A stretch of 64,000 nt of DNA, taken from Thermoplasmata archaeon (lineage in GTDB: Archaea; Thermoplasmatota; Thermoplasmata; GCA-020350865). The translations under genes were made by a program, and so were the position numbers. Every line of letters starts with the position of its first letter. The first letter of the stretch is position 1. Of this stretch, positions 4,337 through 57,290 are shown in pieces. The notes under the pieces were generated by a model, which saw only the letters and a program-made list of their open reading frames with translations, did no database searches and had not been told where the DNA came from. The stretch is from the NCBI GenBank assembly GCA_020348445.1, contig CP070751.1, positions 4,743,778-4,807,777 of the forward strand, given 5' to 3'.

Positions 4337-4352
4337 GGGACAACCCTATCCA

Positions 4353-5724: not shown

Positions 5725-6513
5725 ATGTCCACTTTAATTGATCTGAAAGGCAGTCCCAATCCCAAAATAATTGGCAGGGCTATATACAGCTATGAGGTTT
5801 TAGGCTCCACGAACATCCAGGCAAAGGATTTGGCAGAATCAGAAGCTGAGGATGGTACCGTTGTCATTGCGAAAATTCAGAGTGAGGGTAAGGCGAGGCG
5901 AAATCGGAATTGGATATCGCCGGAAGGTGGTTTATGGCTTTCAGTGATACTAAGGCCGAATATCCCTCCTCAAAAGGCCACCTTGGTAACACTTATGGCG
6001 GCAAATGCTGTTGATGAAACTCTTTCTGAATATGGTCTTAAGGCCAAAATAAAATGGCCCAATGATGTTCTTATAGACGGCAAGAAGGTATGCGGGATTC
6101 TCACTGAGGCAAAGACTAAAGAAAATGAGATAGAATATCTTGTTCTGGGAATTGGAATCAATGCGAATTTCGATTTAAGTGAATTACCTGAGGATATCAG
6201 AGGGGCTTCCACTACGATAAAAAATGAATTAAAAAGGGATATCTCCCAGGATGAATTGCTTCAAAGGTTATTAGGACATGTGAATAAGTATTATGAAGGG
6301 CTCCTTGCTTCTGATTTTCAAAAAATTGTAAAAACTTGGAAGGAAAAAAGTGATACACTGGGAAGGCATGTGAAAATCACAACTCAGATGGAGAGTATCC
6401 AGGGCATAGCTCAGGATATAGACGATACAGGGGCTCTGATATTAAAGAGGGATGACGGTGATATACAGAAATTATTTGCAGGGGATTGTGTATATTTACG
6501 GAATGTTGAATAG
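5725..6513 (+). CDS. birA: Biotin--protein ligase (class I, no N-terminal HTH)
   Basis: It has the BPL signature GKARRNRNWISPEGGLWLSVILRP (GRGRxGRxWxSPxG type) and KWPNDVLIDGKKVCGILTE. Confidence 0.75.
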   Translation: MSTLIDLKGSPNPKIIGRAIYSYEVLGSTNIQAKDLAESEAEDGTVVIAKIQSEGKARRNRNWISPEGGLWLSVILRPNIPPQKATLVTLMAANAVDETLSEYGLKAKIKWPNDVLIDGKKVCGILTEAKTKENEIEYLVLGIGINANFDLSELPEDIRGASTTIKNELKRDISQDELLQRLLGHVNKYYEGLLASDFQKIVKTWKEKSDTLGRHVKITTQMESIQGIAQDIDDTGALILKRDDGDIQKLFAGDCVYLRNVE

Positions 6514-40050: not shown

Positions 40051-40365
40051 GGAGGCACTGGGGTGTTCGAGCTTAAGATATCAGCATATTGTAACATAAC
40101 TCGAACATAAGCCATTTTGCGGGACCCGAGGCTTAAGATTTGATTATATTTCAATTATAAGCGAGGGATAAGCCCTTATGTGGGATGTTCGAGATTAAGA
40201 AATCAGCGTATTGTAACATAACTCGAACATAAGCCATTTTGCGGGACCCGAGGATTAAGATTCAATTATCATTTAAACATAACCGAGGGGCAAGCCCTTT
40301 TGCGGGTGTTCGAGCTTAAGCATCAAGTGATGTATAATTATAACTCGAATACAAAGTGCCCCCAC
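40051..40365. repeat. 2.5 copies of a 122-bp tandem repeat built from two related 61-nt half-units (T1, T2), flanked by tRNA-Trp 3'-end-like sequence
   Basis: TGTTCGAG starts at 40064, 40186 and 40307. CCCGAGG starts at 40125 and 40247. T1 forms a hairpin GTTCGAG-N29-CTCGAAC. T1 copies a and b differ at only a few positions. Confidence 0.7.
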
Positions 40366-40390
40366 GTATTAAAATAATTACAAAACAGAG

Positions 40391-40605
40391 TGGGGGCACT
40401 GGGATTTGAACCCAGATCAGCGGGTTTCCACCGTATAGAGAGCGACTCTATACAAGGTATTTTGGGCTTATTCTTGTGATGGGTCATTGCTCCAGTTAAT
40501 CGTCATTTCCGTTGAGCTAAACACCCAACAAATCGGTAAACCCGTTGGCAATCATTCCCATCTATAACTGGAGCCCGCGAGGATCCCTGACTACCCCATG
40601 CCCCC
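40391..40605 (-). tRNA. tRNA-Trp (anticodon CCA) with a ~142-nt intron at the canonical 37/38 position
   Basis: Exon 1 is GGGGGCA U GGGGUAGUCAGGGAUCC U C GCGGG CU CCA G (anticodon at 40569-40571). Exon 2 is A CCCGC UGAU CUGGG UUCAAAU CCCAG UGCCCCC A. The acceptor, anticodon and T stems all pair perfectly. The intron is ~40426-40567, with boundaries good to +/-2 nt. Confidence 0.85.
40488..40562 (-). ncRNA. Box C/D sRNA embedded in the tRNA-Trp intron, predicted to guide 2'-O-methylation of C34 and position 39 of its own host tRNA
   Basis: The terminal stem is GAUGGG/CCCAUC. The order is C-like AUGAUUG, 12-nt guide CCAACGGGUUUA, D'-like CCGA, C'-like AUGACGA, 12-nt guide UUAACUGGAGCA, D-like AUGA. 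Guide 2 pairs over 10 bp with GCUCCAG plus the first three intron nt, which puts C34 at N+5. Guide 1 pairs with AAACCCG-UG, which puts C39 at N+5. Confidence 0.7.
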
Positions 40606-40877: not shown

Positions 40878-43800
40878 TCACTTTTCCTTTCTAGGCCATT
40901 TAAAAAACGCCACCAATGCGATTATGGCAAAGATAACAATGGTTATCAATAATAAAATAAAAGCATCCACTTCTGAGAAACCCTCTGAATCCTTATCCCC
41001 TTCACCTGAAGATCCATCAATAGGGCTATCAGTGTCAGTTGTATCTTCAACTAATTTAATCTTCACACTGTACATAGCCTGATTATCCACATTATCGGTC
41101 ACAATAACGATTATTGTATGTTTGCCCTCGGAAAGTCCAAAGGTCTCCAAATCGTACTCCCAATTTCCATTTATCAAAACCGAGGTGATGTTGATAGGCT
41201 CTTCATTATCGATGATAAGAGCCATTTCCTTGATTCCTGTATCATCAAATGCATTGCCAATAATAGAAATAGACCCACCAACAACCTCGGATTCCTCGTA
41301 GGCTGCAATCTCAACTTTTGGATCCTGGCTATCCACTTCAAACGTTGTACTTGCCTCCTCTATATGGCCTACCTGATCTTGAACCGATATAGTAATGGTG
41401 TGGGTGCCACTTTCCAGCTCCCTAGTTTCCCATAACTTATAGTTCCAATCCCCATCTGAAATCTTCCAGGTGATATCGATCACGGTCTCGTCATCAATTA
41501 TAAGATATGCATTAGTAATCCCCAAATTATCGAATGCAGTTCCGTAGAATTCTATTGGAGAGCCGGCTTTGAATACCTGATTTTCTTCTGAAACAGCGAT
41601 CTCTGTAGAAGGAGATGTGCCGTCTAATATAATCTTTATCCTATCCGAGGCTACATTACCCGAGCCATCTGTGGCTATAACCTCCACATCATGCTCCCCT
41701 TCGCTTGTTGTGTATTGGGTCTCCCAGTTATAGGACCAAAAACCATCCTGCATTATATTTGATGTGATATCTATCTGGATTGTGCTATCTATCACTATTT
41801 CCAGGGATGCTATTTCCTTATTATCTTGGGCAAAACCCGAAAAATATATGGTGTTTCCTTGTTTAAATACATCTTCATCAGAGGGGTCGTCGATTCTTAC
41901 CACAGGTGTCGTTTTCTCTAAAATTCTGATATTCCTTGTAATGTATGCCAGATTTAAGACCTCATCTATTACCCTAATAGTAATTGTGTGCTCGCCATAG
42001 TCCAGGTCATGTGTGTTTATTTTAATTGACCAGGATTCATCCACAAGATAATATGTGATATCGGTTCTGTTGACCTCGTCAGAATCGATAATCATTTCTA
42101 AAGTATCGACCATTATATTATCTGTTGCCGTTCCACTAACAATGATTGTGTCCCCTAGCCAGTAAATGGCACCCTCAAGAGGGCTTTCCACTAAAAGCTC
42201 AGGATTTATGCCGTCTAAGGATACTGTGGTCATATCGGATGCCTTATTACCCGAACCATCTGTTGCCCAAACCTCAATCTTATGCTCTCCCTCTGAAGAT
42301 GAAGAGGGTGCATTCCATCTGTAGGTCCATGTGCCGTCTTCCAGTAGATTTGATATAATATTTACAGTATCATTATTATCAAAGATAAGTTCGAGGGATG
42401 CGATCTCCTCATTGTCAGTGGCTATACCGGCGATATCGATCGTCTCCCCAGGTCGAAAAATCTGACTGTCTGTTGGATTCTGGATTCTGACTTCAGGTGA
42501 AACTTCCTCAAAGACACTGATGGCTTTTGTATCGGAGGCGTTATTTTGTGCTGTATCACTGATTATTACAGTTATTGTGTGATCACCATAACCTATATCA
42601 TCTACATCCATTTCATATGAAAAATGGTCATCAGATAGATAGGAAGTTATATCGGTAAAATTTTGCTCGTCAGAATCTATTATCAATTTTACAGATTCTA
42701 TCCATCCATTATCTGTTGCAGTTCCATTTACAGTTAATGCATCTCCTAACCAAAACGAGTCCCCTTCAGATGGACTCTCTATGTTGAGTACAGGATCAGT
42801 TGCATCCAACAAACTGAAATTTTTCTGCATCATTGAGATGTTCTCATTATCACTTGCCTTGGCCTTGACCATATGAATACCAGGTTTAAACACTGAAGTG
42901 TCTAAGGATAACTCCCATGTGGTAAATGGCTCCTCCCATTCCTCGCTTGTATCTAATGCAGGCATCCAGTTATTCATGTCATCTATATCAATTTCTACCT
43001 TGTCAACACCTTCAGGTCCCCATGCTGTACCCTCGATAATAAATATATCTCCATGAAAAAATTCCTCTCCCTCCAAAGGCTTTTCAAGAACCAATTTTAA
43101 GCTGCTGTAGATATTTACCGTGATATTGATGATTTTCGTTGTAGATTGCGAAAACTCATTGGAGAAAACAGCGTAGTATCTGTCCTCGTTGGGTAGTGTA
43201 AATAAAACATCATTTGAAATCGATCTTTCTTCAACATTATAGGCATCAAATGAAAGGTCATTTGCATAAAGGTTGTAGTTCAATAAATCCGCGATAAAGA
43301 AGTCGATATTACCCGATTGTCCATACGAGTCCCCATGCTCTCCTGTATATACATTTTCAACCTGTGTTATGTGGGCTTCTACATCATATTTTACCTCCAT
43401 TTCGAAGTGTGGATCGACAATCCCCGGAGGTGTGATTTCCTCGTAGTCCAATCTCGGAGCACTCAGAGGTAGATGAAATGTATATGTGTAACTTGCATCA
43501 GCTTCTGAATTTGATATAACCTGAGTCACTCCGTTTATGGGATCGCTTCCAAGGTCGTCTGATTCGGCACTTGACCAGAAATTCCTCTCATCCCCAAGAG
43601 GTATGGTCACATTTCCTGTATAATCAGTTGAGCCCCACGTGGTCGTGGTAAGTAGGTCAGGATTGTAATAGTATTCAGTGGACACACGGACCAAAGCTCC
43701 ATCCACAGGCATTCCAGAGTCGTCCAAAACAGTGGCAGTGTAATTGCATATCTTCGTATATTTTTTTGAAACAGACCAGATGTCGCTGTCACCTCTTGTG

Positions 43801-44930
43801 TTCCAGACCGAGGATATCTTCTTTCCCCAGCCATTCTCATACATCATTGGATTATCCACTGCACCGTCCCAATGGATCCATCTTTTATCCCAGAATTCGT
43901 TCCAAACGTGATCTTCAGCCGTATTGAGGGTACAGGTTGATGGTATCAAACCTGCCCTTGCGATGGCATTTCGCATGTCCTGGTACTCACCGCATCTTCC
44001 ATAGTGCTTTCGATAGATTCTAACAGGTTGTATGGGTCTTTCTGTGATGTCGCTTGTAAATCTCATTGATCCACTGATCCAGCTGTTACACCTCGAGATG
44101 GCCTCCCATAGCGTATATGCTCCCTCTAATTTCTCCTTAAGGAGCGGATAACCCGAATCATTGAAATAGAATAACCAATCCCTCCAGAATTTACCTGTAG
44201 GCGGTGGCACACCGTAGTTTTTGTCAAATGGAGGATCTGTTGTATAATTGTATTCGGGATCCACGTAAGTTGCGAGCTCGTCACTTAACTTCGGTTCCAC
44301 AATATACCAATAGTAAATACCTTTGGGAAGCTCGCAGCTGACATTATCCCTGTCTTTGTAGATCACGGTTGTATAGTCATCCCTTTCCACGATTTCCACG
44401 TATTTGAGATACTGATCGGCATCGTAGATCAACTGGGCATTATGGGTGATAAGCTCTGGAAAGAAGTAATCATCCTGGAGATTCTCGACTGCAGTATGAG
44501 CAATTACAAAAGCAATTTCGTCTATGTATTTCTCATCAGGTGAGTTAAGTATCAGGTTTGCGTATGTGTTCTGGAATTCAGAGGATAACTGGCGGAACTT
44601 AAAGGAGAGATTGCCCCTAAGCCATCTTGGTACCATTGCTAAGGCCTGATCGCAAGTAGGAGGTAGGTCAACTGGAGGTTTTGCTGAAAGTTCATCATCC
44701 CCAGGGTCGAAGTAGATGTAGAACGATTCGCCTGGATCGATTTGAAGAGTTTGTGTGATAGAGGCGAAAAGATCGGATTCTGTCTCATCACTATCTGTGC
44801 TTTCAATGGGGGTTGAATCCTCATCTGAACCTGGATTATCACCTGTTGTGGTACCTGGAATGATGATGTTGGATATCAAAAGCATAATTAGCATCCAAAT
44901 TAACGTGCTCCGATTTTTTGTTGATAGCAT
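40878..44930 (-). CDS. Giant surface protein with an N-terminal transglutaminase-like (papain-fold) domain, about eight Ig-like repeats and a C-terminal TM anchor
   Basis: It has a signal/anchor (LIWMLIMLLISNIIIPG). The transglutaminase-core triad context is HYGRCGEYQDM (43981-44008), EDHVWNEFWD and WIHWDG. There are ~100-aa repeats with GDxIxIxGTAxDNxxIxxLELIxD...GEHxIxVxAxDxxGN. The C-terminus is FILLLITIVIFAIIALVAFFKWPRKEK. Confidence 0.7.
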   Translation of the reverse strand: MLSTKNRSTLIWMLIMLLISNIIIPGTTTGDNPGSDEDSTPIESTDSDETESDLFASITQTLQIDPGESFYIYFDPGDDELSAKPPVDLPPTCDQALAMVPRWLRGNLSFKFRQLSSEFQNTYANLILNSPDEKYIDEIAFVIAHTAVENLQDDYFFPELITHNAQLIYDADQYLKYVEIVERDDYTTVIYKDRDNVSCELPKGIYYWYIVEPKLSDELATYVDPEYNYTTDPPFDKNYGVPPPTGKFWRDWLFYFNDSGYPLLKEKLEGAYTLWEAISRCNSWISGSMRFTSDITERPIQPVRIYRKHYGRCGEYQDMRNAIARAGLIPSTCTLNTAEDHVWNEFWDKRWIHWDGAVDNPMMYENGWGKKISSVWNTRGDSDIWSVSKKYTKICNYTATVLDDSGMPVDGALVRVSTEYYYNPDLLTTTTWGSTDYTGNVTIPLGDERNFWSSAESDDLGSDPINGVTQVISNSEADASYTYTFHLPLSAPRLDYEEITPPGIVDPHFEMEVKYDVEAHITQVENVYTGEHGDSYGQSGNIDFFIADLLNYNLYANDLSFDAYNVEERSISNDVLFTLPNEDRYYAVFSNEFSQSTTKIINITVNIYSSLKLVLEKPLEGEEFFHGDIFIIEGTAWGPEGVDKVEIDIDDMNNWMPALDTSEEWEEPFTTWELSLDTSVFKPGIHMVKAKASDNENISMMQKNFSLLDATDPVLNIESPSEGDSFWLGDALTVNGTATDNGWIESVKLIIDSDEQNFTDITSYLSDDHFSYEMDVDDIGYGDHTITVIISDTAQNNASDTKAISVFEEVSPEVRIQNPTDSQIFRPGETIDIAGIATDNEEIASLELIFDNNDTVNIISNLLEDGTWTYRWNAPSSSSEGEHKIEVWATDGSGNKASDMTTVSLDGINPELLVESPLEGAIYWLGDTIIVSGTATDNIMVDTLEMIIDSDEVNRTDITYYLVDESWSIKINTHDLDYGEHTITIRVIDEVLNLAYITRNIRILEKTTPVVRIDDPSDEDVFKQGNTIYFSGFAQDNKEIASLEIVIDSTIQIDITSNIMQDGFWSYNWETQYTTSEGEHDVEVIATDGSGNVASDRIKIILDGTSPSTEIAVSEENQVFKAGSPIEFYGTAFDNLGITNAYLIIDDETVIDITWKISDGDWNYKLWETRELESGTHTITISVQDQVGHIEEASTTFEVDSQDPKVEIAAYEESEVVGGSISIIGNAFDDTGIKEMALIIDNEEPINITSVLINGNWEYDLETFGLSEGKHTIIVIVTDNVDNQAMYSVKIKLVEDTTDTDSPIDGSSGEGDKDSEGFSEVDAFILLLITIVIFAIIALVAFFKWPRKEK

Positions 44931-45047: not shown

Positions 45048-45527
45048 TTAACCAACTACTGGAACCTCTATTCCTTTATCAGGATATCCAGATTTTTTAA
45101 CTGTAACAGATAGTGAATCCATGGTGCCTTCTTCCACCTCAAGATGTAGTCCGCTAAAGGCGGCTTCGCCGTTTTCATTGGTCTCAGCCCATGCTGTTCC
45201 ACCACTAGAGAAGCTAACATCACAACCAGATAAGGTAACAGTCGCCCCTTTAACCTTATTATTGTCGGAATCCCGGACTATTATTTTCAACGTTCCTGAT
45301 TCAGTTGAAGAGAATCCATCCCCGTTATCATCTGTCAACGTTATCTGATTTGGATCCGGTGAAATGGTTCCAAAAGATTTTGGAGTGCTTATACTATTTA
45401 ACCATGCTATAATAATGACTATGGCAATCGCTGCTATCACAACCAAGATAATCAAATACAGCGGTAATCCCTCAAGGGCACCTTTTTCGTCCCAACTAAG
45501 TTTCTTTCCAAGTTTGGCTTTGTTCAT
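45048..45527 (-). CDS. Possible archaeal type IV pilin-like (class III signal peptide) protein
   Basis: It has a basic N-terminus, then KG/ALEGLPLYLIILVVIAAIAIVIII, which resembles a prepilin-peptidase site followed by the hydrophobic helix. The C-terminal region looks like a beta-sandwich (KGATVTLSG). Confidence 0.4.
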   Translation of the reverse strand: MNKAKLGKKLSWDEKGALEGLPLYLIILVVIAAIAIVIIIAWLNSISTPKSFGTISPDPNQITLTDDNGDGFSSTESGTLKIIVRDSDNNKVKGATVTLSGCDVSFSSGGTAWAETNENGEAAFSGLHLEVEEGTMDSLSVTVKKSGYPDKGIEVPVVG

Positions 45528-45696
45528 TCATTTCCTCCCAAGTCTTTTCCTGATTCCTAAAACTCATTTTCGATATATAATACTTTTTGCAATATATATT
45601 CAAATTATACATCACTAAAAAAGTATTAACTTATTTGTATTAATTTTCGCAATTATAAAGTTGAGTTTATGAATTAAAGTATTTAAAAAAACAGAG

Positions 45697-45771
45697 CGGA
45701 CTCGGCGGGATTCGAACCCGCGACATCCAGCTTAGAAGGCTGGCGCCCTATCCATGCTAGGCCACGAGCCC
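45697..45771 (-). tRNA. tRNA-Arg (anticodon UCU), intron-less
   Basis: The minus strand reads GGGCUCG...CCAGC CU UCU AA GCUGG...GCGGG UUCGAAU CCCGC CGAGUCC G. The 7-bp acceptor stem includes G3-U70 pairing geometry G-U. The length is 75 nt. Confidence 0.9.
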
Positions 45772-45856
45772 AACTCTGAATCTGTGCCCAAAATTATGTG
45801 GTAGCTATTAAAAGTTCCCCTTGGGGGAGAAGGAAAAATTGTACCTTAAAGTCGGG

Positions 45857-45917
45857 GTGTTCAAGTTATGATTATACATCAATTTCGTCTTAAGCTTGAA
45901 CACAAACGACGGTCCAC
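45857..45917. repeat. Palindromic T-loop-like element (GTGTTCAAG-N29-CTTGAACAC) plus an inverted copy of the tRNA-Ala 3' acceptor end
   Basis: The 9-bp arms lie at 45857-45865 and 45895-45903. CGGTCCAC at 45910-45917 is the reverse complement of GTGGACCG at 45942-45949 (the tRNA-Ala 3' end). The element is ~80 percent identical by eye to the reverse complement of repeat copy T1c at 40308-40350. Confidence 0.65.
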
Positions 45918-45942
45918 GAATATAAGTATAAAATAAATAAAG

Positions 45943-46032
45943 TGGACCGGAGGGGATTTGAACCCCTGGCCTCCACCAATTTGGCCATCAAAGGATGCCA
46001 AGGTGGCGATCTTCCAACTGATCTACCGGCCC
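45943..46032 (-). tRNA. tRNA-Ala (anticodon GGC) with a 17-nt intron
   Basis: The sequence is GGGCCGG UA GAUC AGUUGGAA GAUC G CCACC UU GGC A [UCCUUUGAUGGCCAAAU] U GGUGG AGGCC AGGGG UUCAAAU CCCCU CCGGUCC A. The G3-U70 pair, the Ala identity element, is present. The intron is ~45979-45995. Confidence 0.85.
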
Positions 46033-46179
46033 GATTGCGATTGTATTCAAATTGTAGGGCCGGTAGGTATAGTGGGGGCGAAGCCACCACGAATATCTAC
46101 CGGCCCGTATTTAATTGATGTCCCATTTGAGGGACGGTAGGGCGAGTGGAGACTTGTTCTCCACGGGGTCTACCGGCCC
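46033..46179 (-). repeat. Two 73-74-nt units, each starting with the first 11 nt of tRNA-Ala and folding into a ~50-nt two-tier hairpin
   Basis: GGGCCGGUAGA starts (minus strand) at 46032 (the real tRNA), 46106 and 46179. Unit B has outer arms at 46097-46106 and 46057-66 (10/10 bp) and an inner stem GUGGUGG/CCCCCAC. Unit C has outer arms at 46170-79 and 46131-40 (9/10 bp) and an inner stem GUGGAGA/UCUCCAC (7/7 bp). Confidence 0.7.
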
Positions 46180-47409: not shown

Positions 47410-48831
47410 TCAATACCTGTACTCCTTGAGTGTATGCTGGAACCTGTGCTTTTCGGGGGGAATATCCATGGGATATTTTTCTGTAACACAACCGAGGCAA
47501 AGATCGTCTTTTGAAAATTGTAGTGCTTCAACCAATCCCTCAATGCTTATGTATCCCAAGGAATCTGCATTAAGAATCTCTCTTATTTCCTCCACAGTTC
47601 TATCATGGGCTATGAACTGGTCCCTTGTTGTCATGTCAATTCCCAAATAGCATGGCGATATCAGCGGGGGGGTGCCGATTCTGACATGCACCTCAGATGC
47701 CCCTGCCTCTCTTACCATATCCACGATTCGCTTCATGGTGGTACCCCTTACTATACTGTCATCCACTAGAACAACCCGTTTGTCCTCAACTTCACATTTA
47801 ATTGGATTTACCTTCTCCCTTACTGTAATCTCCCTTAATTTCTGGGAGGGCATGATAAAAGTTCTTGCTATGTATCGGTTCTTCATAAGGCCCTCAGCAA
47901 GAGGTATTCCAGATCCCAAAGAGAAGCCAAAAGCATGTGCTCTTCCCGAGTCAGGAACAGGTATTATAATATCTGCATGGGCAGGATGCTCCTTTGCCAG
48001 TCTCCAACCAACTCTCTTTCGAATCTCGTAAACACATCTTTCATCTATGATTGAGTCCCCCCTGGCAAAGTAAGTATATTCAAAGAAACAGTGGGCTCTG
48101 TGCTTTAGGTTAAACAGTTGATGTGATTTGTAATCTTTAGATGTTATTTCCACCACCTCTCCAGGAGCAACATCCCTTATCATCTTGGCACCTATTACAT
48201 CCAGAGCAACACTTTCTGAGGCAATGATATATCCATCTGCAAATTTACCCAAGCATAAAGGTTTTATTCCCAGGGGATCCCTAATTCCGAAAATCCTGTT
48301 GTTGAACATCATTGTGAAAGAGTAAGAGCCTTCGATCTCATTTAACGTCCTTTTTAATGCATTTATAAGGTCTCCTGAGGAGTTTAAGTGGTCAATTAAA
48401 AGATAACCAACAACCTCCTCCTCACAACCGAGTTCAAACTCGTGGCCCTTTCTCTTCAGTCGTTTTCGCAATTTCTCTGCATTGATAAGTATACCATTAT
48501 GGGCCAAGGCCACTTCACCGGCTTCTGTCTTTATGATTGTGGGTTGTGCGTTCTCAGGTTTGGATAATTTTATGGAGTAATAGGTATGACCTATTCCGTT
48601 CCTACCTTTCATGGATTTCAGTTTTTCATCATCAAAAATATTTGCTACCAAACCTATACCTTTGTGCGATTCGATCTTCTTGTTGAATACTGAGATACCT
48701 GCTGCTTCCTGACCGCGATGTTGAAGAGCACGAAGAGAGTAATAAATGTAGTTGGATGCTTTCGACTTCGAGGCGATGGCAACGACACCGCATCTCTCTT
48801 TAAACCTATGTTGTAGTTTTTGAATATTCAT
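47410..48831 (-). CDS. purF: Amidophosphoribosyltransferase
   Basis: It has a short propeptide followed by the Ntn nucleophile context ERCGVVAI. It has RGQEAAGI, the PRPP loop VLVDDSIVRGTT, and C-terminal Fe-S cysteines (PCYLGID, CLGCVT). Confidence 0.9.
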   Translation of the reverse strand: MNIQKLQHRFKERCGVVAIASKSKASNYIYYSLRALQHRGQEAAGISVFNKKIESHKGIGLVANIFDDEKLKSMKGRNGIGHTYYSIKLSKPENAQPTIIKTEAGEVALAHNGILINAEKLRKRLKRKGHEFELGCEEEVVGYLLIDHLNSSGDLINALKRTLNEIEGSYSFTMMFNNRIFGIRDPLGIKPLCLGKFADGYIIASESVALDVIGAKMIRDVAPGEVVEITSKDYKSHQLFNLKHRAHCFFEYTYFARGDSIIDERCVYEIRKRVGWRLAKEHPAHADIIIPVPDSGRAHAFGFSLGSGIPLAEGLMKNRYIARTFIMPSQKLREITVREKVNPIKCEVEDKRVVLVDDSIVRGTTMKRIVDMVREAGASEVHVRIGTPPLISPCYLGIDMTTRDQFIAHDRTVEEIREILNADSLGYISIEGLVEALQFSKDDLCLGCVTEKYPMDIPPEKHRFQHTLKEYRY

Positions 48832-48924: not shown

Positions 48925-50322
48925 CTATTTCCCGCACCAGCAATGAAGACATAGAGATTCTTTTGGAAGACCTATTGCTCTTATCATATCATCCAGGGTC
49001 TGGTATTTCAAAGAGGTGACACCAAGATCATCTTTTATCCATTCCACCATTTTTTGGAATTTTACAGAGTTTGAATCTATATATTCAGTGACGTCTTCTA
49101 TGTCATTTCCTTCTAATGCCCTGATGGCTCTTCTTGCTGCAAGTTCACTTATGGTTCTTGTGGATAGGATGTATCTACATGGAAACATAAGTGGGGGGCA
49201 TGCAACTCTTATATGGACCTCTTTTGCCTCATTGTCCCATAATTTCTGGACAGTGAAGTTCCGAAGTTGGGTTCCCCTGACTATGGAATCCTCGCATAGT
49301 ACCATCCGATTATCTTTAATAACCTCTTTTATTGGAATGAGTTTCATTGTTGCCACCATGTCTCTTATCTCCTGGGATGGCGGAGTGTAACTTCTACCGT
49401 ATCCTGAGGTATACTTAACCAGGGGCCTTCTAAACGGCACCTTCGCACCCATGGCATAACCGATTCCGTGGGCTGTTCCGGAGTCTGGGACACCAGAGGC
49501 AAAATCCAACTCTATATCATCATTTTTTGCTAGACACTTTCCTGTTCTTTCCCTGACACCCTCGACACTGATTCCCTCATAACTGGAGGCAGGATACCCT
49601 GTATAGATCCATAAAAATGCACAAATTTGAGTCGAGGATTCTGGCCCCTTCTTGTCACTAAGCCCTCCTTCTTTTAAAAGCACTATCTCACCAGGGCCTA
49701 GGTATTTCACTATGTTAAAGCCGAGATTAGGAAGGGAGCAGGTCTCTGAAACCACAACATGTTCATGGTCTTTCTTCCCTACAACAAGTGGTGTATGCCC
49801 GTGTCTGTCTCTTGCAGCATAGATCCCTTCTTCTGTGAGCAATAAAAGTGAAACAGAACCCTTGATTTTATCGAACATCTTTTCAATACCATCGATTATG
49901 TTTTCTCCACGGGTAATCAATTTACCGATAACCTCGGTTGTGTTGAGAGTTCCGTCATCCATTTCACTGAAAGAGAGACCTTCATTTTGCAATTGAAGGG
50001 CTAGTTCCTCGGCGTTTTCTATAAGACCCGCGGTGACGATGGCAAAATTTCCAAACGAGGAGGAGATTATTATAGGTTGGGAATCCATATCACTTATTAC
50101 ACCTATTCCGCTGTTTCCATTCATATCCTTGTAATCATCAAAGAATTTCGATTTGAATTGGGATTGTGTGATATCATGTATTTTTCTCTGTATCTTTTTG
50201 GTTTCTTTGTTATAGACAGCCAATCCACCACGCTGTGTACCCAGATGTGAATGGTAATCAACACCATAAAACAGGTTATTTGTACAATTGCCCATACCGA
50301 CAACGCCAAAAACTCCACTCAT
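48925..50322 (-). CDS. PurF-like paralogue (class II amidotransferase fold plus PRTase domain) lacking the N-terminal Cys nucleophile
   Basis: It is collinear with PurF (PRTase loop VLCEDSIVRGTQ; C-terminal CPPLMFPCRY and CLHCWCG). However, the N-terminus is MSGVFGVVG rather than (M)CG. The start lies 1 nt after the L37e stop. Confidence 0.7.
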   Translation of the reverse strand: MSGVFGVVGMGNCTNNLFYGVDYHSHLGTQRGGLAVYNKETKKIQRKIHDITQSQFKSKFFDDYKDMNGNSGIGVISDMDSQPIIISSSFGNFAIVTAGLIENAEELALQLQNEGLSFSEMDDGTLNTTEVIGKLITRGENIIDGIEKMFDKIKGSVSLLLLTEEGIYAARDRHGHTPLVVGKKDHEHVVVSETCSLPNLGFNIVKYLGPGEIVLLKEGGLSDKKGPESSTQICAFLWIYTGYPASSYEGISVEGVRERTGKCLAKNDDIELDFASGVPDSGTAHGIGYAMGAKVPFRRPLVKYTSGYGRSYTPPSQEIRDMVATMKLIPIKEVIKDNRMVLCEDSIVRGTQLRNFTVQKLWDNEAKEVHIRVACPPLMFPCRYILSTRTISELAARRAIRALEGNDIEDVTEYIDSNSVKFQKMVEWIKDDLGVTSLKYQTLDDMIRAIGLPKESLCLHCWCGK

Positions 50323-53153: not shown

Positions 53154-56100
53154 TCACATAAGTGGTGGCATATCCAATGCAGGATGACCCACCTTTTGAC
53201 AGAATGCAACTAGCTCCTCGGCAGTTTTTGCTACTTCCTCAGTTGCGATCTTGTCATAGAAATCAGGCGTCTCTAGCTCCTCGCATCTTTTTTCCATATG
53301 TTCCTTCATTGCTTCCTTGAGCTCCTTGGGCATCCACATGATTCTGTGAAAACCACCATTTGCACGGATGAATTTTTTGCTTAATAAGAATTTCCTGCCA
53401 ACTCCGATGAATCCCGGGGTCTGCAGGCCGCCACCAACTGATCCTGCCAATGTCGAGAACTTCATACCCAATGGTGTTTCTCCTGGGTGCTCACGGTTGA
53501 CAACAATCACACCCTGCAGATCAGGTGTTATACCCACTATGCACTCGAAACATCCGCAAGATGTCATGGGATTTTCCATTAGATCGTATTGATTAAATAT
53601 TTCCAGTTTACCGTGGCTGTATTCTTTTACTGCCTCGTTTACACCCACCCATTGACCCTTGTTCTCGTCTATGGTATCCTTCTTCTCAACAGGTTGATTG
53701 GGGCCTGTGGGTGAAAGTTGATTTGCAGCCTTTGCATCCATCCAGTTGATGGCACCGCATAATCCCAATCTCTCGGGGCTAATGATGCATACATGCTGCG
53801 GTGCAAAAGACTGACACAGCGTACAGGTATAGAATGTCTCAACTGCCTCGTCTGTCAATCCTGCCATCTTCTGGTCCCTTGCTTCATATGTTTCTAGAGC
53901 CTCGGGCAATCGCTTTTGAAGCTCCTCTTCATCTGTTACTATGGTCACCTGCACCCTGTTTAATATGGCACCGAACTCCTGGTGCATCCTTGTATAGAGT
54001 ATTGTTCCAAAATCCTTGAACTTGAGGCCGTTGGCAACACCATTTTTGCTCAATCGAATCCAGACCAGATTCCTTTGACCTGTATGCCAAGCACCTTCTG
54101 CGAAGTTGATGAATTGATGAATTCTTCGCTCCAGCACTGATTCAAAGTCCTCTATCATCTTCTTGCCATAAACCTCGACAAATATTCCAAGGACTGTCTT
54201 GCCCCCCTCTTCCATTTCGTCGACATCTTTGCCAATTAATGTGATCTTTCCGTCCTCCATTTCCTCTGCTGGTCGCATCTTGCAAAGCTCCATTGCCAGG
54301 GTCTTGGCTGCACCGCCTGCTTCCATATGTGTCTGGGGTCTTCTTACTGTCTCACCTTCGAAGGCAGGGCCGTATGCAACAGGTATATCGACTGTTCCCA
54401 TCTTGATGATCATGTCCCTAATCTCGATAGCAGTGGAGATCATCTGGGTATAGTCTTTTTGCATGACATACTTACCAGGAATCTCCTCAATATCCTGATC
54501 TGTTACTGTTGGTGAACCATTGAAAAGCACTGCAAATTCTGCTGCAGTTTTTATGTCGTCAATTGGGCCAAGCTGTAGAACCACGACCTTTGGTCTCTTT
54601 GATAGGTAATTGTAAATTCCCTCCCTGTCACCAGGCTTTACTCCACCAAATACCATTGCAGCTCTTATTGCAAAGGAAAGACCGTGTATGGCCTGTGTGA
54701 ACTCTCCCACACAAAACAGCATTCTGTCCAGACCCTTTTTCTCACCGATTTCGATTCCTACTTCTTTGATCTGTTGTATCGTGTCGAACGTGGGTATGAT
54801 CAGCATACCTTTGTTTTGTGCATCGCGGATGATCTTCTTCAGGGCATCAGGGTCCTTAGCTTTGCCCACAAGAACAATAGCACCTGGGATGGTGTCGTCA
54901 ACAAACGCTATTCCCAGTTCCCTTAGTATAACATCCGATACAAAACCTGAATATAAAGGATCCTCGCCATACGGATCTGGCTGACCTTTGATATATTTGA
55001 GAGCCTCGACGATTTCTGCTGAGACCATGGTTGCTTCGCCAGATTTAACTGCATTTTCGTAGGTGTATTCACCCTCTATTATCTTACGCCTGACATCACC
55101 AAGGATAATTGGAAGCTCTCCCAATGTCTTTACCTTGGCTCCAGTCCACGCTAGTATGCACGGCAGGAAATAACCTGTATCGGGATATTCGATCTCCTGC
55201 TCGCGGCCGTACTTTCTAATGGCTCTGTTGAGGAGGTAATCTGCATAGCCAGTTGCAATAATTGCACCATCAATGGCTTTTTTAAACAACTGCTCTTGTG
55301 ATATCTTTGGGCGCTCGTCCTGGGGAGTTGTTCCATCCCAGTAAATCCTTTCTGGATCATCACTTATACCCAGTTTCCAGCGCCTGTATTTAATAATGTT
55401 GTTTAACTTCCTTGCAGCCTCTTGAGGATCCTTTTCAAATACAAAGAATCCTCCATACACGTCCTTGGCTGTGACCTCTGCGATTTCAGTCACAATTGGG
55501 CTGCCTTTATGGAAGGCATAGACCCCAACATGCGTGGGCCACCCTGTTGCCACAAGCCAAGTTCCGATTGCAACAGCTTTCTCGCTCATCGCCTCTGGAG
55601 CAGAGCCCACCATTGGAAACTGGTGCATGTCAATTCCCATCTTATTGGAAAGCTCGGCCACCAGATTCTCGGCTCTGGAATTATCAACACAAGATCCCAT
55701 GTGAAGAACCAGAGGTAAGGGCCCACCCATTCCAGCCTTTTCCCCCGCTTCTGTTAGAAATCCCTTGAGTGAATCACCAGCATATTCATTTGTGGCCTCA
55801 GGTGTGAGATAACCGTGCTTTGCAAGGGCCTGGGCTGCACATCCTGTTGCCACAACAAGAACGTTATTCTTGGCAAGTTCCCTTGCTATTGTCAGATGGC
55901 CTTCATCATGTTGGGTTTTAACGTTATTACAACCTGCAATAAGGCATATTCCTGCTATTGTGCCATCATTTATTTTGTCCACAAGGTACTGTAGTGGATC
56001 TTCCGAATTGAAATTGCTAAGTATCTTCTTTATTGTCTCCAAGCTGAAACCAGCAGTGACCTTGTTCTTGAACTCGGGGATGAACACCTTGCTCGGATCC

Positions 56101-57290
56101 CTATTCTTGTATGCAGCTATTGCTACCTTTATGATCTCCTTGGCTGCCTCAGCGGCGCCCTTCTCAGTAAACTCTATATGTGTGTCAGTTGGAATCCTGG
56201 TAATGGGCATTGTTGAAATGAGCTTGGTATGAAAGCACTGTGACCAGTATCCTAGGGAGGGTGAGATACATTGGTAATCTACCACAATGGCATCAAGAAC
56301 ACCTGTTAGGATTGCCAGTTCCGAGCATGCGAAGTTCGTACAAATGGGAACTCCCCTTCTCATGAGGAGCTCATTTGCTGTGCAGCAGATACCAACGATG
56401 TTGATTCCCTTGGCTCCTGCAGCTTCAGCTTCCCCTTTTAATTCCTCGGCAGCGTCGCATACAACCTCAGAAAGAACTGGGTTGTGTCCATGAACACATA
56501 TGTTGATATGGTCCTCTTTTAGAGCACCGAGATTTGCTTCTGAAGAAACAATATCGGGGGTTCCAAATAGAATGTCGGCAAAGTCGGTTGAAATATTTTC
56601 ACCTGTAACATCACCCATTGCGCATTTTATTCCACCAAATATGAGGGGTACAGGATCGGCATCGCAGCCCTGATGCGATCTGTGCATAAGCTCTGCAATT
56701 CCCCTGTCAATGTTAGTGCACATAACATCATGGGAATCCACAAGATTTAATCTCTTCTCAGGAAGCATTGTCTTAAGCCAAGTTGCGGGTTGATCGTCTT
56801 GTCTTGCAAAATCTTCAAGTGCTTTTTCTGCAAGTTCCTTTGCTAGGGTCATGTTGTCCTTGCCTGCAATATCTATTCCCACCTTCTCGGCCACTCGTTT
56901 GAGTTTCTCTTCGTCCTTTATTGAATAGGCAGGAGCCTTTCCCTCGGCGAGTGCATGAAGTGTATGGGCAAGATGCCTCCCATGATCAGAGTGGGCCGCG
57001 GCACCCCCGCCTATCATCCTCAGGACCTTTCTTGCCACAATGGTGTAATCCTTTGCTCCGCATATCCCCTCTTTGGGTCCCCTTCCATGGGGATCGATCC
57101 TACAGGGTCCTTGAAGACACAGCCTGCAACACAGACCAGATTCTCCAAATCCGCACTGAGGTGACATTGCATCCATTCTATCCCAGTAGGTTTCCATATT
57201 TGCTTCTGCAGCTTTGTCCAGCATCACCCAGGCTGCAGGGTCAACTGTTTTATCTTTATGGTTTTCTTTCTGTTCTGAATCTTCGCTCAT
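53154..57290 (-). CDS. acsA-acsB: Fused Ni-CODH (AcsA-like, N-terminal ~650 aa) and acetyl-CoA synthase (AcsB-like, C-terminal ~700 aa) in one polypeptide
   Basis: The CODH part has QCGFGESGLCCRLCLQGPCRI, VHGHNP, GICCT, AGCNN and HMGSCVDNSR. The linker ISDDPERIYWDGTTPQDERPKISQEQ lies at ~55300-55375. The ACS part has YPDTGYFLP, GPAFEGE, the A-cluster motifs CQSFAPQHVCIISPERLGLCG (~53740-53830) and SCGCFE (53533-53570), and the end GHPALDMPPLM. Confidence 0.9.
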   Translation of the reverse strand: MSEDSEQKENHKDKTVDPAAWVMLDKAAEANMETYWDRMDAMSPQCGFGESGLCCRLCLQGPCRIDPHGRGPKEGICGAKDYTIVARKVLRMIGGGAAAHSDHGRHLAHTLHALAEGKAPAYSIKDEEKLKRVAEKVGIDIAGKDNMTLAKELAEKALEDFARQDDQPATWLKTMLPEKRLNLVDSHDVMCTNIDRGIAELMHRSHQGCDADPVPLIFGGIKCAMGDVTGENISTDFADILFGTPDIVSSEANLGALKEDHINICVHGHNPVLSEVVCDAAEELKGEAEAAGAKGINIVGICCTANELLMRRGVPICTNFACSELAILTGVLDAIVVDYQCISPSLGYWSQCFHTKLISTMPITRIPTDTHIEFTEKGAAEAAKEIIKVAIAAYKNRDPSKVFIPEFKNKVTAGFSLETIKKILSNFNSEDPLQYLVDKINDGTIAGICLIAGCNNVKTQHDEGHLTIARELAKNNVLVVATGCAAQALAKHGYLTPEATNEYAGDSLKGFLTEAGEKAGMGGPLPLVLHMGSCVDNSRAENLVAELSNKMGIDMHQFPMVGSAPEAMSEKAVAIGTWLVATGWPTHVGVYAFHKGSPIVTEIAEVTAKDVYGGFFVFEKDPQEAARKLNNIIKYRRWKLGISDDPERIYWDGTTPQDERPKISQEQLFKKAIDGAIIATGYADYLLNRAIRKYGREQEIEYPDTGYFLPCILAWTGAKVKTLGELPIILGDVRRKIIEGEYTYENAVKSGEATMVSAEIVEALKYIKGQPDPYGEDPLYSGFVSDVILRELGIAFVDDTIPGAIVLVGKAKDPDALKKIIRDAQNKGMLIIPTFDTIQQIKEVGIEIGEKKGLDRMLFCVGEFTQAIHGLSFAIRAAMVFGGVKPGDREGIYNYLSKRPKVVVLQLGPIDDIKTAAEFAVLFNGSPTVTDQDIEEIPGKYVMQKDYTQMISTAIEIRDMIIKMGTVDIPVAYGPAFEGETVRRPQTHMEAGGAAKTLAMELCKMRPAEEMEDGKITLIGKDVDEMEEGGKTVLGIFVEVYGKKMIEDFESVLERRIHQFINFAEGAWHTGQRNLVWIRLSKNGVANGLKFKDFGTILYTRMHQEFGAILNRVQVTIVTDEEELQKRLPEALETYEARDQKMAGLTDEAVETFYTCTLCQSFAPQHVCIISPERLGLCGAINWMDAKAANQLSPTGPNQPVEKKDTIDENKGQWVGVNEAVKEYSHGKLEIFNQYDLMENPMTSCGCFECIVGITPDLQGVIVVNREHPGETPLGMKFSTLAGSVGGGLQTPGFIGVGRKFLLSKKFIRANGGFHRIMWMPKELKEAMKEHMEKRCEELETPDFYDKIATEEVAKTAEELVAFCQKVGHPALDMPPLM

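Follow-up and report, generated by a model that had tools for sequence, protein, structure and literature searches.

What is the short inverted sequence that lies just behind the tRNA-Ala gene in the genome of a Thermoplasmata archaeon (contig CP070751.1), and does it serve the maturation of that tRNA? The original prediction, made for a stretch of 64,000 nucleotides (hereafter the window, always at its full length), described three consecutive elements 3' of tRNA-Ala, namely an inverted copy of the acceptor 3' end behind a 24-nt AT spacer and a T-loop-like palindrome, and reported the same arrangement at tRNA-Trp. It proposed that the inverted copy can pair with the acceptor strand of the tRNA and would thereby compete with the acceptor stem or clamp the 3' trailer. 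The described arrangement is indeed present at both genes (Table 1) and is far beyond chance. A strict palindrome pattern gave 3 matches in comparison to 0.00 expected, the combined arm and loop motif gave 4 in comparison to 0.06 expected, and a covariance model that was run without filters over the entire window detected the hairpin only in the 3' flanks of these two tRNA genes. The gene for tRNA-Trp was missed by ARAGORN and falls below the Rfam threshold because of its intron; it was recovered by ARAGORN only when introns were allowed. Its inverted copy is followed by TT and by GTATTCGAG-N29-CTCGAACAC.

Table 1 Positions of the tRNA genes and of the module parts in the 64-kb window. A, copy of the tRNA 3' end; S, spacer; IR, inverted copy of the tRNA end; H, hairpin. 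L numbers denote loci retrieved because they contain H.
Feature	Position	Strand	Composition	Basis
tRNA-Ala(GGC)	45943-46032	-	host gene of the module, with an anticodon-loop intron	Rfam tRNA 57.2 bits; ARAGORN with introns allowed; sequence
A at tRNA-Ala	45942-45949	-	CGGTCCAC; acceptor 3' strand nt 67-72, discriminator A73 and first trailer nt; left arm of the outer palindrome	direct reading; parsed copy
S at tRNA-Ala	45918-45941	-	24-nt AT-rich spacer TTTATTTATTTTATACTTATATTC with a T-run and the conserved ATTC end	direct reading; family profile (T at position 1, T-run at 6-9, A-T-W-C at the end)
IR at tRNA-Ala	45910-45917	-	GTGGACCG; perfect reverse complement of A	direct reading; parsed copy
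H at tRNA-Ala	45857-45903	+	47-nt hairpin, 9-bp arms GTGTTCAAG/CTTGAACAC and 29-nt loop; loop flipped relative to the tRNA, so that the model matches the + strand	covariance model 71.7 bits, E 6e-15; inverted-repeat pair
CCC	45854-45856	-	stump of the direct repeat of the tRNA 3' end; the rest has decayed here	comparison with L003 (CCTCCGGTCCAC after the hairpin) and L002 (CCCCTTCGGTCCAC)
Two mirror-image 5' modules	46033-46179 (U1 46131-46179, S 46107-46130, U2 46057-46106, S 46033-46056)	-	each a copy of tRNA nt 1-11 (GGGCCGGTAGA), an inner hairpin, the inverted copy CTACCGKCCC and a 24-nt spacer	repeat families in the window; one or two such units precede tRNA-Ala genes in L001, L107, L088, L092, L127 and L136
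tRNA-Trp(CCA)	40391-40605	-	host gene of the second module array, with a ~139-nt intron	ARAGORN with introns (gives 40390-40605); Rfam 21 bits for part of it; sequence
A, S and IR at tRNA-Trp	40355-40400 (A 40390-40400, S 40366-40389, IR 40355-40365)	-	A AGTGCCCCCAC; S 24 nt; IR GTGGGGGCACT	direct reading; parsed copy
Compound hairpin array at tRNA-Trp	40051-40352 (H1 40306-40352, variant 40245-40291, H2 40185-40230, partial variant 40132-40160, H3 40063-40108)	-	closed by the direct repeat CCCAGTGCCTCC (40051-40062), which matches the Trp 3' end at 11 of 12 positions (the differing base is 40053)	122-bp tandem repeat; covariance-model hits; sequence
tRNA-Arg(TCT) and trailer	45671-45771 (tRNA 45697-45771)	-	third tRNA in the window, without a module; trailer CTCTGTTTTTTTAAATACTTTAATTC resembles a spacer S, thus an empty site or a site that lost its unit	sequence; comparison with orthologous loci

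Some details of the initial description had to be corrected. The linker between IR and H at tRNA-Ala (TCGTTT) comprises 6 and not 7 nt, and the interior of the Ala hairpin is inverted relative to the Trp copies and to 59 of 62 copies elsewhere. The CCC behind the hairpin is the remainder of a direct repeat of the tRNA 3' end that is intact in relatives, and the Trp site holds five hairpins in a compound array instead of one. In intact copies this direct repeat, which had been overlooked, comprises the last 12–17 nt of the tRNA. The likeness of the palindrome to the T-loop has two sources: the junction with the duplicated T-stem 3' strand, and a hairpin arm that mimics GGTTCRA. The arms are, however, not copies of the host T-loop, since the G/A variant of the arm does not follow the TTCGAAT or TTCAAAT of the host tRNA. 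Similarly, IR cannot be regarded as a copy of the tRNA 5' strand (GGGCCGG in tRNA-Ala), as it has A opposite U70 in tRNA-Ala and also complements the discriminator, trailer and T-stem 3' bases.

To find out whether the module is a peculiarity of this locus, we searched for the hairpin pattern in 185,579 genomes of species representatives. It was found in only four genomes, all of related Thermoplasmata, and in addition in 14 metagenome contigs, but in none of 2.9 million viral contigs of IMG/VR. (A first scan with a looser pattern had returned mostly chance hits in bacteria; these loci served as negative controls.) The covariance model detected 62 hairpins in the retrieved loci and none in 47 control loci. 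Every copy inspected follows a tRNA 3' end or a fragment of a tRNA 3' end. Of 38 tRNAs in the retrieved loci, 31 have an H that starts 27–43 nt past the 3' end, and these cover 17 isoacceptors; as the loci were chosen for containing H, this fraction is not a genome-wide rate. IR never occurs without H. It is a true reverse complement of the contiguous 3' end of its own tRNA, running through the discriminator and 1–4 trailer nucleotides, and it recurs, matched to each tRNA, at 17 or more isoacceptors with a spacer of 23–24 nt in 29 of 35 parsed copies. In 29 of 35 copies it matches the adjacent tRNA end better than the downstream repeat, and never the reverse, although this comparison is biased because IR was defined by its match to the upstream end. 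Two outcomes that would have spoken against the original prediction, a generic dispersed palindrome and the absence of the inverted copy from other tRNAs, were thus looked for and not found: the palindrome is linked to tRNAs, and the inverted copy is present at many other tRNAs.

The hairpin is constrained. Its helix of 12 pairs (nine arm pairs plus three invariant pairs) is 97.9% paired, all 9 variable pairs show double-sided changes, and the observed values were reached in 0 of 500 shuffles. This is not an ascertainment effect, since loops that were found without any arm filter have 0 arm mismatches in 44 of 67 cases. In orthologous Trp modules of four species, whose flanking protein is 68–81% identical, S is only 33–80% identical, whereas IR keeps 9–10 of 10 positions and the arms keep 8–9 of 9. 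A bias towards wobble pairs, which might have distinguished pairing in RNA from pairing in DNA, was uninformative because the mismatches reflect the C-rich composition of the tRNA strand.

The units behave like insertions. One unit consists of A, a copy of the last 12–17 nt of the tRNA (T-stem 3' strand, acceptor 3' strand and discriminator), the 23–24-nt AT-rich spacer S with its T-run, IR, a linker of 2–4 nt, and the 47-nt hairpin H with a conserved loop (TTAT..ACATCAAT..TCTTAAG). It lies between the T-loop and a second copy of the tRNA end, as an insertion at the boundary of T-loop and T-stem that supplies its own replacement 3' end would do, and the tRNA stays intact when unit and tRNA match. 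Tandem arrays hold 2–4 units. At orthologous tRNA-Arg(TCT) genes the number of units is 0 in the window, 1 in L003 and L127 and 2 in L002/L107. Nested units lie between H and the direct repeat in L095, and the Trp array of the window appears to be arranged in the same way. In two cases, tRNA-Pro(TGG) copy 1 in L128 and tRNA-Pro(GGG) copy 1 in L132, a heterologous unit sits exactly between the T-loop and the gene's own T-stem 3' strand and carries the end of another tRNA together with its matching IR; each of these genes is followed by an intact tandem copy. No partner gene was detected: an all-against-all BLAST of 668 ORFs from all loci found only syntenic orthologues, and a Pfam search of nine neighbours in the two loci checked (L135 and L137) found housekeeping and surface proteins but no integrase or transposase.

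The proposed function in tRNA maturation was only partly supported by our analysis. In a read-through transcript of the tRNA-Ala of the window the trailer-paired form is the minimum-energy fold (−60.3 kcal/mol, compared to −56.1 kcal/mol with the acceptor stem enforced). However, 27 of 32 3' spacers carry a run of four or more T at about positions 6–9, the usual archaeal terminator signal, and most tRNA transcripts should therefore end before IR. None of the nine 5' spacers, which must be read through to reach the tRNA, contains such a run. Intact units carry a second copy of the tRNA end that can pair equally with IR, and a module that occurs in tandem, nested and in the wrong tRNA is a repeat unit and not a dedicated trailer. 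No RNA sequencing run was found that contains the region, and an acceptor clamp is possible but unproven. The DNA runs that contain it are sediment metagenomes, one of which includes 96% of the words of the region; placing their contigs on the region revealed only breaks at the conserved tRNAs and one other hairpin copy, but no empty or filled alleles. A promoter inside S was also considered, as the geometry would put a start site at the first base of H, but the same reasoning fails for the 5' spacers.

We tentatively interpret the feature as a partly decayed copy of a lineage-specific, non-coding and non-autonomous repeat of about 100 bp that lives at the ends of tRNA genes. The architecture of the unit, its strict linkage to tRNA ends, the tandem, nested and wrong-tRNA copies, the gain or loss between orthologous loci and the covariation of the paired arms are directly evident from the sequences; what follows is inferred from them. 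We assume that the units spread and persist at the DNA level by duplicative insertion or recombination at T-loop-like motifs and that, since they encode no protein of their own, any enzyme involved acts in trans. Two hairpins, A with IR closed by S, and H, are presumably the parts that matter, either in single-stranded DNA or in RNA, and IR would be kept matched to the neighbouring tRNA end by hairpin-templated correction or by selection. In this view the host tRNA is largely unaffected, because the T-run in S ends most transcripts before IR, and read-through transcripts can fold in such a way that IR pairs with the downstream repeat instead of invading the acceptor stem. We found no enzyme, no excision product and no pair of empty and filled alleles within one population, and mobility is thus inferred from comparative patterns only. 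The nested and wrong-tRNA copies could instead arise by gene conversion between arrays, with the hairpin and the T-loop as homology. The model does not explain how each tRNA obtains its own matching IR (quasipalindrome correction is only our proposal), nor the fixed spacer length of 23–24 nt at both the 5' and the 3' sides. Near-perfect IR and arms at orthologous loci with a diverging S are what a function for the host would also give, and the 5' modules, which lie between promoter and tRNA, are necessarily transcribed and are kept in several genomes, hint at an RNA role.

Other explanations cannot be excluded but appear less likely to us. A cis-acting trailer, in which IR pairs with the acceptor and T-stem 3' strand in read-through transcripts, buries the tRNase Z site, opens the acceptor stem and so delays or gates 3' maturation, agrees with the complementarity of IR through exactly the tRNase Z cleavage site, with its better fit to the adjacent tRNA end, with the fold of the Ala transcript and with the conservation of IR. 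It would also apply to the 5' strand of tRNA-Ala, which has inverted copies 24 nt from both ends. This reading is nevertheless unlikely, as a T-run precedes IR in 27 of 32 copies, the tRNA folds before IR is transcribed, intact units offer IR a second partner, units occur nested and in the wrong tRNA, and many tRNAs and some orthologues lack the module. About as doubtful is an array of pseudo-tRNA hairpins in a polycistronic precursor, in which each downstream [IR-H-direct repeat] and each upstream [5' copy-inner hairpin-inverted copy] would fold into an acceptor-stem mimic and be cut out by RNase P (at ATWC/G, the slash marking the junction) and tRNase Z to release small RNAs of 50–73 nt. S always links a 3'-acceptor-like strand to a 5'-acceptor-like G-rich strand and ends in A-T-W-C in 32 of 35 copies, both before IR and before genuine tRNA 5' ends; the mimics would be separated by uniform 24-nt spacers, the 5' modules lie between promoter and tRNA with spacers free of T-runs, the stem of IR and repeat reproduces the cognate acceptor stem, and the loop motif TGGRACATCAATT of the hairpin is shared with a 5' spacer. 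On the other hand, each 3' unit is preceded by a T-run, the downstream repeat often lacks the discriminator and is fitted worse by IR, and the module has no Rfam match at E<=1 and, by eye, no C/D or H/ACA boxes in the loop consensus on the tRNA strand.

It is also conceivable, though unlikely, that the units are mobile, intron-like elements of the T-loop: A-S-IR-H would be removed by the tRNA splicing endonuclease because the right arm of H (CTYGAAC) pairs with the T-arm (GGTTCRA), so that the T-loop is joined to the downstream repeat and a circle of ~100 nt is released, and the short T-loop introns common in this lineage would have arisen from such units by internal deletion. The unit boundaries coincide with the position of T-loop introns (3' exon = ATCCC + acceptor 3' strand) in L003, L127, L133, L134 and L130, the intron 3' ends (CTCGAAA/AT, CCTGAAA/AT) resemble the right arm of H plus junction (CTCGAAC/AT), minimum-energy folds pair the tRNA 5' strand with the distal repeat, and the two tRNA-Pro genes with heterologous units, whose exons are intact in L128, can give a functional tRNA only if the unit is spliced out. 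Drawn by hand and without a dedicated tool, a 4-bp helix GUUC:GAAC and a 2–3-nt bulge can be placed on the 3' side, but the 5' bulge would be a structured segment of ~70 nt, and no canonical bulge-helix-bulge, with two 3-nt bulges separated by a 4-bp helix, resulted. Moreover, the tRNA-Ala and tRNA-Trp of the window are complete upstream of the unit, splicing of matching units is unnecessary and would leave no trace in the sequence, both tRNA-Pro genes have an intact tandem copy and may be pseudogenes (L132 copy 1 has a defective acceptor 3' strand), and the T-run would terminate transcription inside the supposed intron. Least likely are scars of classical integrative elements or casposons whose interior was later deleted. 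Direct repeats of 12–17 nt flank the unit in relatives and at tRNA-Trp as att sites would, they begin next to the T-loop, and orphan tRNA-3' fragments with modules occur in L135 and L137. However, no integrase, Cas1 or other recurrent gene was found near any copy in the ORF comparison, no copy was found in the viral contigs, unit size and architecture are uniform in all 62 copies, and the unit starts with the T-rich S and ends with ...CTTAAGCTYGAACA, ends that are not inverted repeats of each other. Neither mechanism produces a tRNA-matched inverted copy.

Literature searches found no description of such modules, but several systems resemble them in part. The tandem 178-bp repeats downstream of the E. 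coli tyrT tRNA-Tyr operon (rtT region) are non-coding, lie directly 3' of a tRNA gene and each end in a copy of its 3'-terminal segment; they represent a single locus in one genome and are not known to have an inverted copy, a conserved hairpin, a fixed spacer or a 5' counterpart. Integrating elements of Archaea (the Caldiarchaeum model, PMC3293823; SSV/pNOB8-type integration) also target tRNA genes, leave partial tRNA copies beside an intact gene and have been linked to the origin of introns and split tRNAs, but they are kilobases long, encode a recombinase and leave direct repeats only. The casposon of Aciduliprofundum boonei, a host of the same phylum, duplicates 15 bp next to the T-loop-encoding segment of a tRNA gene (PMC5137440), and tandem insertion is possible in principle. 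Its duplication overlaps the tRNA by only 5 bp. The present repeat starts at the T-loop/T-stem boundary and is 12–17 nt long, with a variable length and a register that differs from A. boonei. Casposons have terminal inverted repeats and Cas1/PolB genes, none of which was found in the present loci. Hairpin-ended elements of single-strand transposons (IS200/IS605-derived PATEs; REP/BIME with RAYT) are small and protein-less, with two covarying hairpins each, strand-specific orientation, insertion next to a short conserved motif and formation of clusters and arrays. Their stems are constant within a family, their loops are short and they are not known to copy the target, while in the present units, which likewise show two hairpins with covarying stems and strand-specific orientation, one stem is built from the target tRNA itself and the loops are 24 and 29 nt; no Y1 transposase was seen in the flanks that were examined. 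Archaeal tRNA introns at non-canonical positions and permuted or split tRNA genes (PMC3218864, PMC4090602) share the use of T-loop positions and the need for intron-like sequence complementary to the adjoining exon, and the A-S-IR junction looks like that of a permuted gene. Rfam gives a permuted-tmRNA match at 40345-40418 that remains below threshold (27.8 against 47 bits), but only an acceptor-like strand and H, without a D arm or anticodon arm and thus not the full 5' half of a permuted gene, follow the spacer, and the upstream tRNA needs no splicing. The double-hairpin elements of fungal mitochondrial DNA (Allomyces), short mobile non-coding units scattered in intergenic regions and near structural RNA genes, belong to a different domain of life and are not known to show strict linkage to tRNA ends or to carry copies of the target. 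The module also lacks the G+C-rich hairpin immediately followed by a U-run of an intrinsic terminator: the T-run lies inside the 24-nt loop (positions 6–9 of S) upstream of IR, and only 2–4 pyrimidines follow the stem of A and IR.

tRNA genes are the favoured landing sites of archaeal mobile DNA and the only archaeal genes that commonly carry introns or are split or permuted, and how these disruptions arise is an open question. The present family provides dozens of related snapshots in a few genomes of sediment archaea, comprising intact units, tandem arrays, nested units, units in the wrong tRNA, flipped hairpins and decayed copies, so that the steps can be ordered; in our reading it shows how small hairpin elements can colonise, duplicate and sometimes split tRNA genes. 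If the unlikely intron-like reading were true, it would be a concrete, observable route for the gain and transposition of protein-spliced tRNA introns and for the origin of permuted or split tRNA layouts. Of practical relevance, standard tRNA finders miss or mis-end several of these genes. The target-matched inverted copy, the spacer fixed at 23–24 nt and the mirror-image modules at both ends of a gene are not produced by any insertion mechanism known to us. If the hairpins act in RNA, this is a new layer of pre-tRNA architecture; if they act in DNA, it is a new kind of structure-guided element aimed at the most conserved motif of tRNA genes.

The window comes from an archaeon and carries three tRNA genes on its minus strand, for alanine, arginine and tryptophan, of which default ARAGORN finds only the tRNA-Arg(TCT) gene and Rfam at its gathering score only the Arg and Ala genes. 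The gene for tRNA-Trp(CCA), which is missed by both, has an intron of ~139 nt that contains AACTGGAGC, complementary to the gene's own anticodon stem-loop (GCTCCAGTT), and ATGA-type box-like motifs; this fits the box C/D guide RNA of euryarchaeal tRNA-Trp introns. Neighbouring genes include a radical SAM protein, the CdhD subunit of CO dehydrogenase/acetyl-CoA synthase and two adjacent paralogous purF-like glutamine amidotransferases, the second of which lacks a detectable phosphoribosyltransferase domain in Pfam. Several very large ORFs (1350-2720 aa) are also present; the 1350-aa ORF has internal repeats of ~590 nt, and the small ORF downstream of it has weak Ig-like domain hits. These are probably repetitive surface proteins. 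The closest genome by purF (82% identity) is the 3.2-Mb MAG CP070739.1, labelled Methanomassiliicoccales, and two other Thermoplasmata MAGs are syntenic.

Coordinates of features in the window and in the related loci (L numbers denote the individual loci that were compared)
Feature	Location	Coordinates	Strand
tRNA-Ala(GGC), with an anticodon-loop intron	window	46032-45943	minus
tRNA-Arg(TCT)	window	45771-45697	minus
tRNA-Trp(CCA)	window	40605-40391	minus
Hairpin with flipped interior at tRNA-Ala	window	45857-45903	
Closing repeat A' at tRNA-Trp	window	40062-40051	
Sub-threshold match to permuted tmRNA	window	40345-40418	minus
Trailer of the module-less tRNA-Arg	window	45671-45696	minus
Two mirror-image 5' units upstream of tRNA-Ala	window	46179-46033	minus
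Mirror-image 5' module	L001	~11526-11605	
Module of the second type	L001	~11745-11830	
Module of the second type	L095	~4245-4345	minus
tRNA-Pro gene with anticodon TGG, tandemly duplicated	L128	~1714-1886	minus
tRNA-Pro gene with anticodon GGG, tandemly duplicated	L132	4776-5000	
T-loop intron	L003	~4815-4860	
T-loop intron	L127	~5845-5875	
Very large ORF	window	40878-44930	minus
Very large ORF	window	9646-15885	
Very large ORF	window	16008-24170	
Very large ORF	window	53154-57290	
Very large ORF	window	59060-63955	
Small ORF with weak Ig-like hits	window	45048-45527	
purF-like gene	window	47410-48831	minus
purF-like gene	window	48925-50322	minus

The original prediction described, directly 3' of tRNA-Ala, an inverted copy of the acceptor 3' end, an AT spacer of 24 nt and a T-loop-like palindrome, and every element that it listed is present at the stated coordinates. 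The strict palindrome pattern has 3 matches in the window against 0.00 expected, and the arm-plus-loop motif has 4 against 0.06 expected. A covariance model of the hairpin, run with filters off over the whole window, hits only the 3' flanks of tRNA-Ala and tRNA-Trp. The Ala hairpin differs from nearly all others in that its 29-nt interior is flipped, so that the model matches the plus strand there. Such a flip relative to the tRNA is found in 3 of 62 copies (the window, L142/L151 and L152), each of which sits in a module with other signs of decay, and this is consistent with inversion by recombination between the 9-bp arms.

In the syntenic loci the hairpin is followed by a direct repeat of the tRNA's own 3' end. 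At tRNA-Ala of L003 the order is ...CCCCTCCGGTCCAC, 23 nt, GTGGACCG, 5 nt, the hairpin and CCTCCGGTCCAC, whereas tRNA-Arg of L002 carries two such units in tandem, 99 bp apart. The full unit therefore consists of A (the T-stem 3' strand, the acceptor 3' strand and the discriminator), the spacer S, the reverse complement of A (IR), a linker and the hairpin H, and is closed by a second copy A'. At the window's tRNA-Ala only CCC of A' survives, while at tRNA-Trp A' (CCCAGTGCCTCC) closes an array of five hairpins. A stretch at tRNA-Trp gives a sub-threshold Rfam match to permuted tmRNA (27.8 bits, E 0.01); the order T-arm, acceptor 3' strand, loop and acceptor 5'-like strand mimics the junction of a permuted gene.

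A specific hairpin pattern matches only four genomes among 185,579 species representatives, all related Thermoplasmata MAGs, in addition to 14 metagenome contigs and no viral contig. The covariance model finds 62 copies in these loci and none in 47 control loci of bacteria and other archaea. Every copy inspected follows a tRNA 3' end or a tRNA-3'-end fragment. Of 38 tRNAs that ARAGORN finds in the loci, 31 have H starting 27-43 nt past the gene; since the loci were chosen for having H, this fraction is not a genome-wide rate. The isoacceptors are Ala (GGC, TGC, CGC), Arg (TCT, CCT), Trp, Leu (CAG, TAG), Glu (TTC, CTC), Tyr, Pro (TGG, GGG), Gly (CCC, GCC), His and Ser. IR was never seen without H. 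A second module type follows some tRNAs (L001, L107, L129, L095 and L153) and has an inverted copy of the T-loop and T-stem 3' strand (for example GGAGGGATTTGAA), a different hairpin (GGATGAAAGG...CCTTTCTATCC) and a longer direct repeat that starts inside the T-loop.

The spacer between A and IR is 24 nt long in 18 and 23 nt long in 11 of 35 parsed copies; it has T at position 1, a T-run at positions 6-9 and a conserved A-T-W-C end. IR is 8-14 nt long, starts flush with the spacer and includes the complement of the discriminator and of 1-4 trailer bases. In tRNA-Ala, IR carries A opposite U70 and is therefore templated on the contiguous 3' end, not copied from the 5' acceptor strand. IR fits the upstream tRNA end better than A' in 29 of 35 copies and never the reverse, although this comparison is biased because IR was defined by its match to the upstream end. 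The hairpin loop has invariant TTAT and CTTAA (within the motif TCTTAAG) next to the arms, and a central ACATCAAT. The hairpin helix is 97.9% paired, with double-sided changes at all nine variable pairs, and loops found without any arm filter still have perfectly paired arms in 44 of 67 cases. Orthologous Trp modules of four species, in which a flanking protein is 68-81% identical, keep IR (9-10 of 10) and the arms (8-9 of 9) while S drops to 33-80% identity. Such covariation shows that pairing matters, but it does not by itself say whether in RNA or in single-stranded DNA, as hairpin-templated correction of palindromes would give the same pattern.

Several features suggest spread of the units. 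Their number differs at orthologous tRNA-Arg(TCT) loci (0, 1, 1 and 2). The window's empty tRNA-Arg site keeps a spacer-like trailer (CTCTGTTTTTTTAAATACTTTAATTC) that aligns with the first spacer of the orthologous module-bearing loci, and that may be a footprint of unit loss or the native sequence from which spacers derive. Arrays reach four hairpins, and in L095, and apparently in the window's Trp array, foreign units are nested exactly between a hairpin and the closing repeat. In one MAG, two tandemly duplicated tRNA-Pro genes (L128 and L132) each carry in copy 1 a unit built on another tRNA's 3' end, together with the IR that matches that other tRNA; in L132 the foreign end is that of tRNA-Trp. 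In both genes the unit lies exactly between the T-loop and the gene's own T-stem 3' strand, and an intact tandem copy of the gene follows. These cases define the unit as A-S-IR-H and its site as the 3' side of a T-loop-like motif (TTCRAAT, or the look-alike YGAACAY at the end of H). Only a unit that matches its tRNA leaves the gene working without splicing, which would explain why matching units dominate. Gene conversion between arrays is an alternative route to the same structures. No gene was found to travel with the units.

Upstream of tRNA-Ala lie two mirror-image units of 74 nt, each with a copy of tRNA nt 1-11, an inner hairpin (GTGGnnn-RCAAG-nnnCCAC), the inverted copy and a 24-nt spacer. 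They sit between the promoter and the tRNA, and one or two such units precede tRNA-Ala genes in several of the related genomes (L001, L107, L088, L092, L127 and L136). On the RNA strand, a spacer always joins a 3'-acceptor-like strand to a 5'-acceptor-like strand and ends in ATWC. The 3' spacers carry four or more T in 27 of 32 cases, whereas the nine 5' spacers, which must be transcribed through, never do. The family is therefore shaped by the direction of transcription, each tRNA end or repeat being followed by a likely terminator, and this argues that most tRNA transcripts stop before IR.

The original prediction further proposed that the inverted copy competes with the acceptor stem or clamps the 3' trailer, and this interpretation is partly supported. 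For the window's tRNA-Ala, a read-through transcript is predicted to prefer the A:IR hairpin (-60.3 kcal/mol) over the acceptor stem (-56.1). Where A' is intact, all strands can be satisfied in two ways: either the tRNA folds and IR pairs with A' around H, or A pairs with IR and the tRNA 5' strand pairs with A'. Predicted minimum-energy folds use both. The proposed competition is thus thermodynamically sound but conditional on read-through. A relation to introns is also conceivable. tRNAs of this lineage often have T-loop introns (L003, L127, L133, L134, L130, L149 and L154), and some genes, such as tRNA-Arg of L127, carry two introns. Non-canonical intron positions are best known from Thermoproteales. 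The 3' exon of the T-loop introns of this lineage starts at the same boundary as A', and the 3' ends of these introns resemble the right arm of H; the inner hairpins of the 5' modules also resemble T-loop intron hairpins. A canonical bulge-helix-bulge could not be drawn by hand for a whole unit. We therefore retain the intron reading, which would be the most novel one, as an alternative and not as the main interpretation.

In summary, the observation at tRNA-Ala is confirmed and extended. The architecture of the units, their linkage to tRNA ends and the importance of pairing are shown by the sequences, whereas the spread of the units, termination in S and the folding of read-through transcripts are inferred from sequence alone. 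In the best-supported reading, the modules represent a new, lineage-restricted family of protein-less hairpin repeat units that colonise tRNA gene ends and carry direct and inverted copies of those ends.
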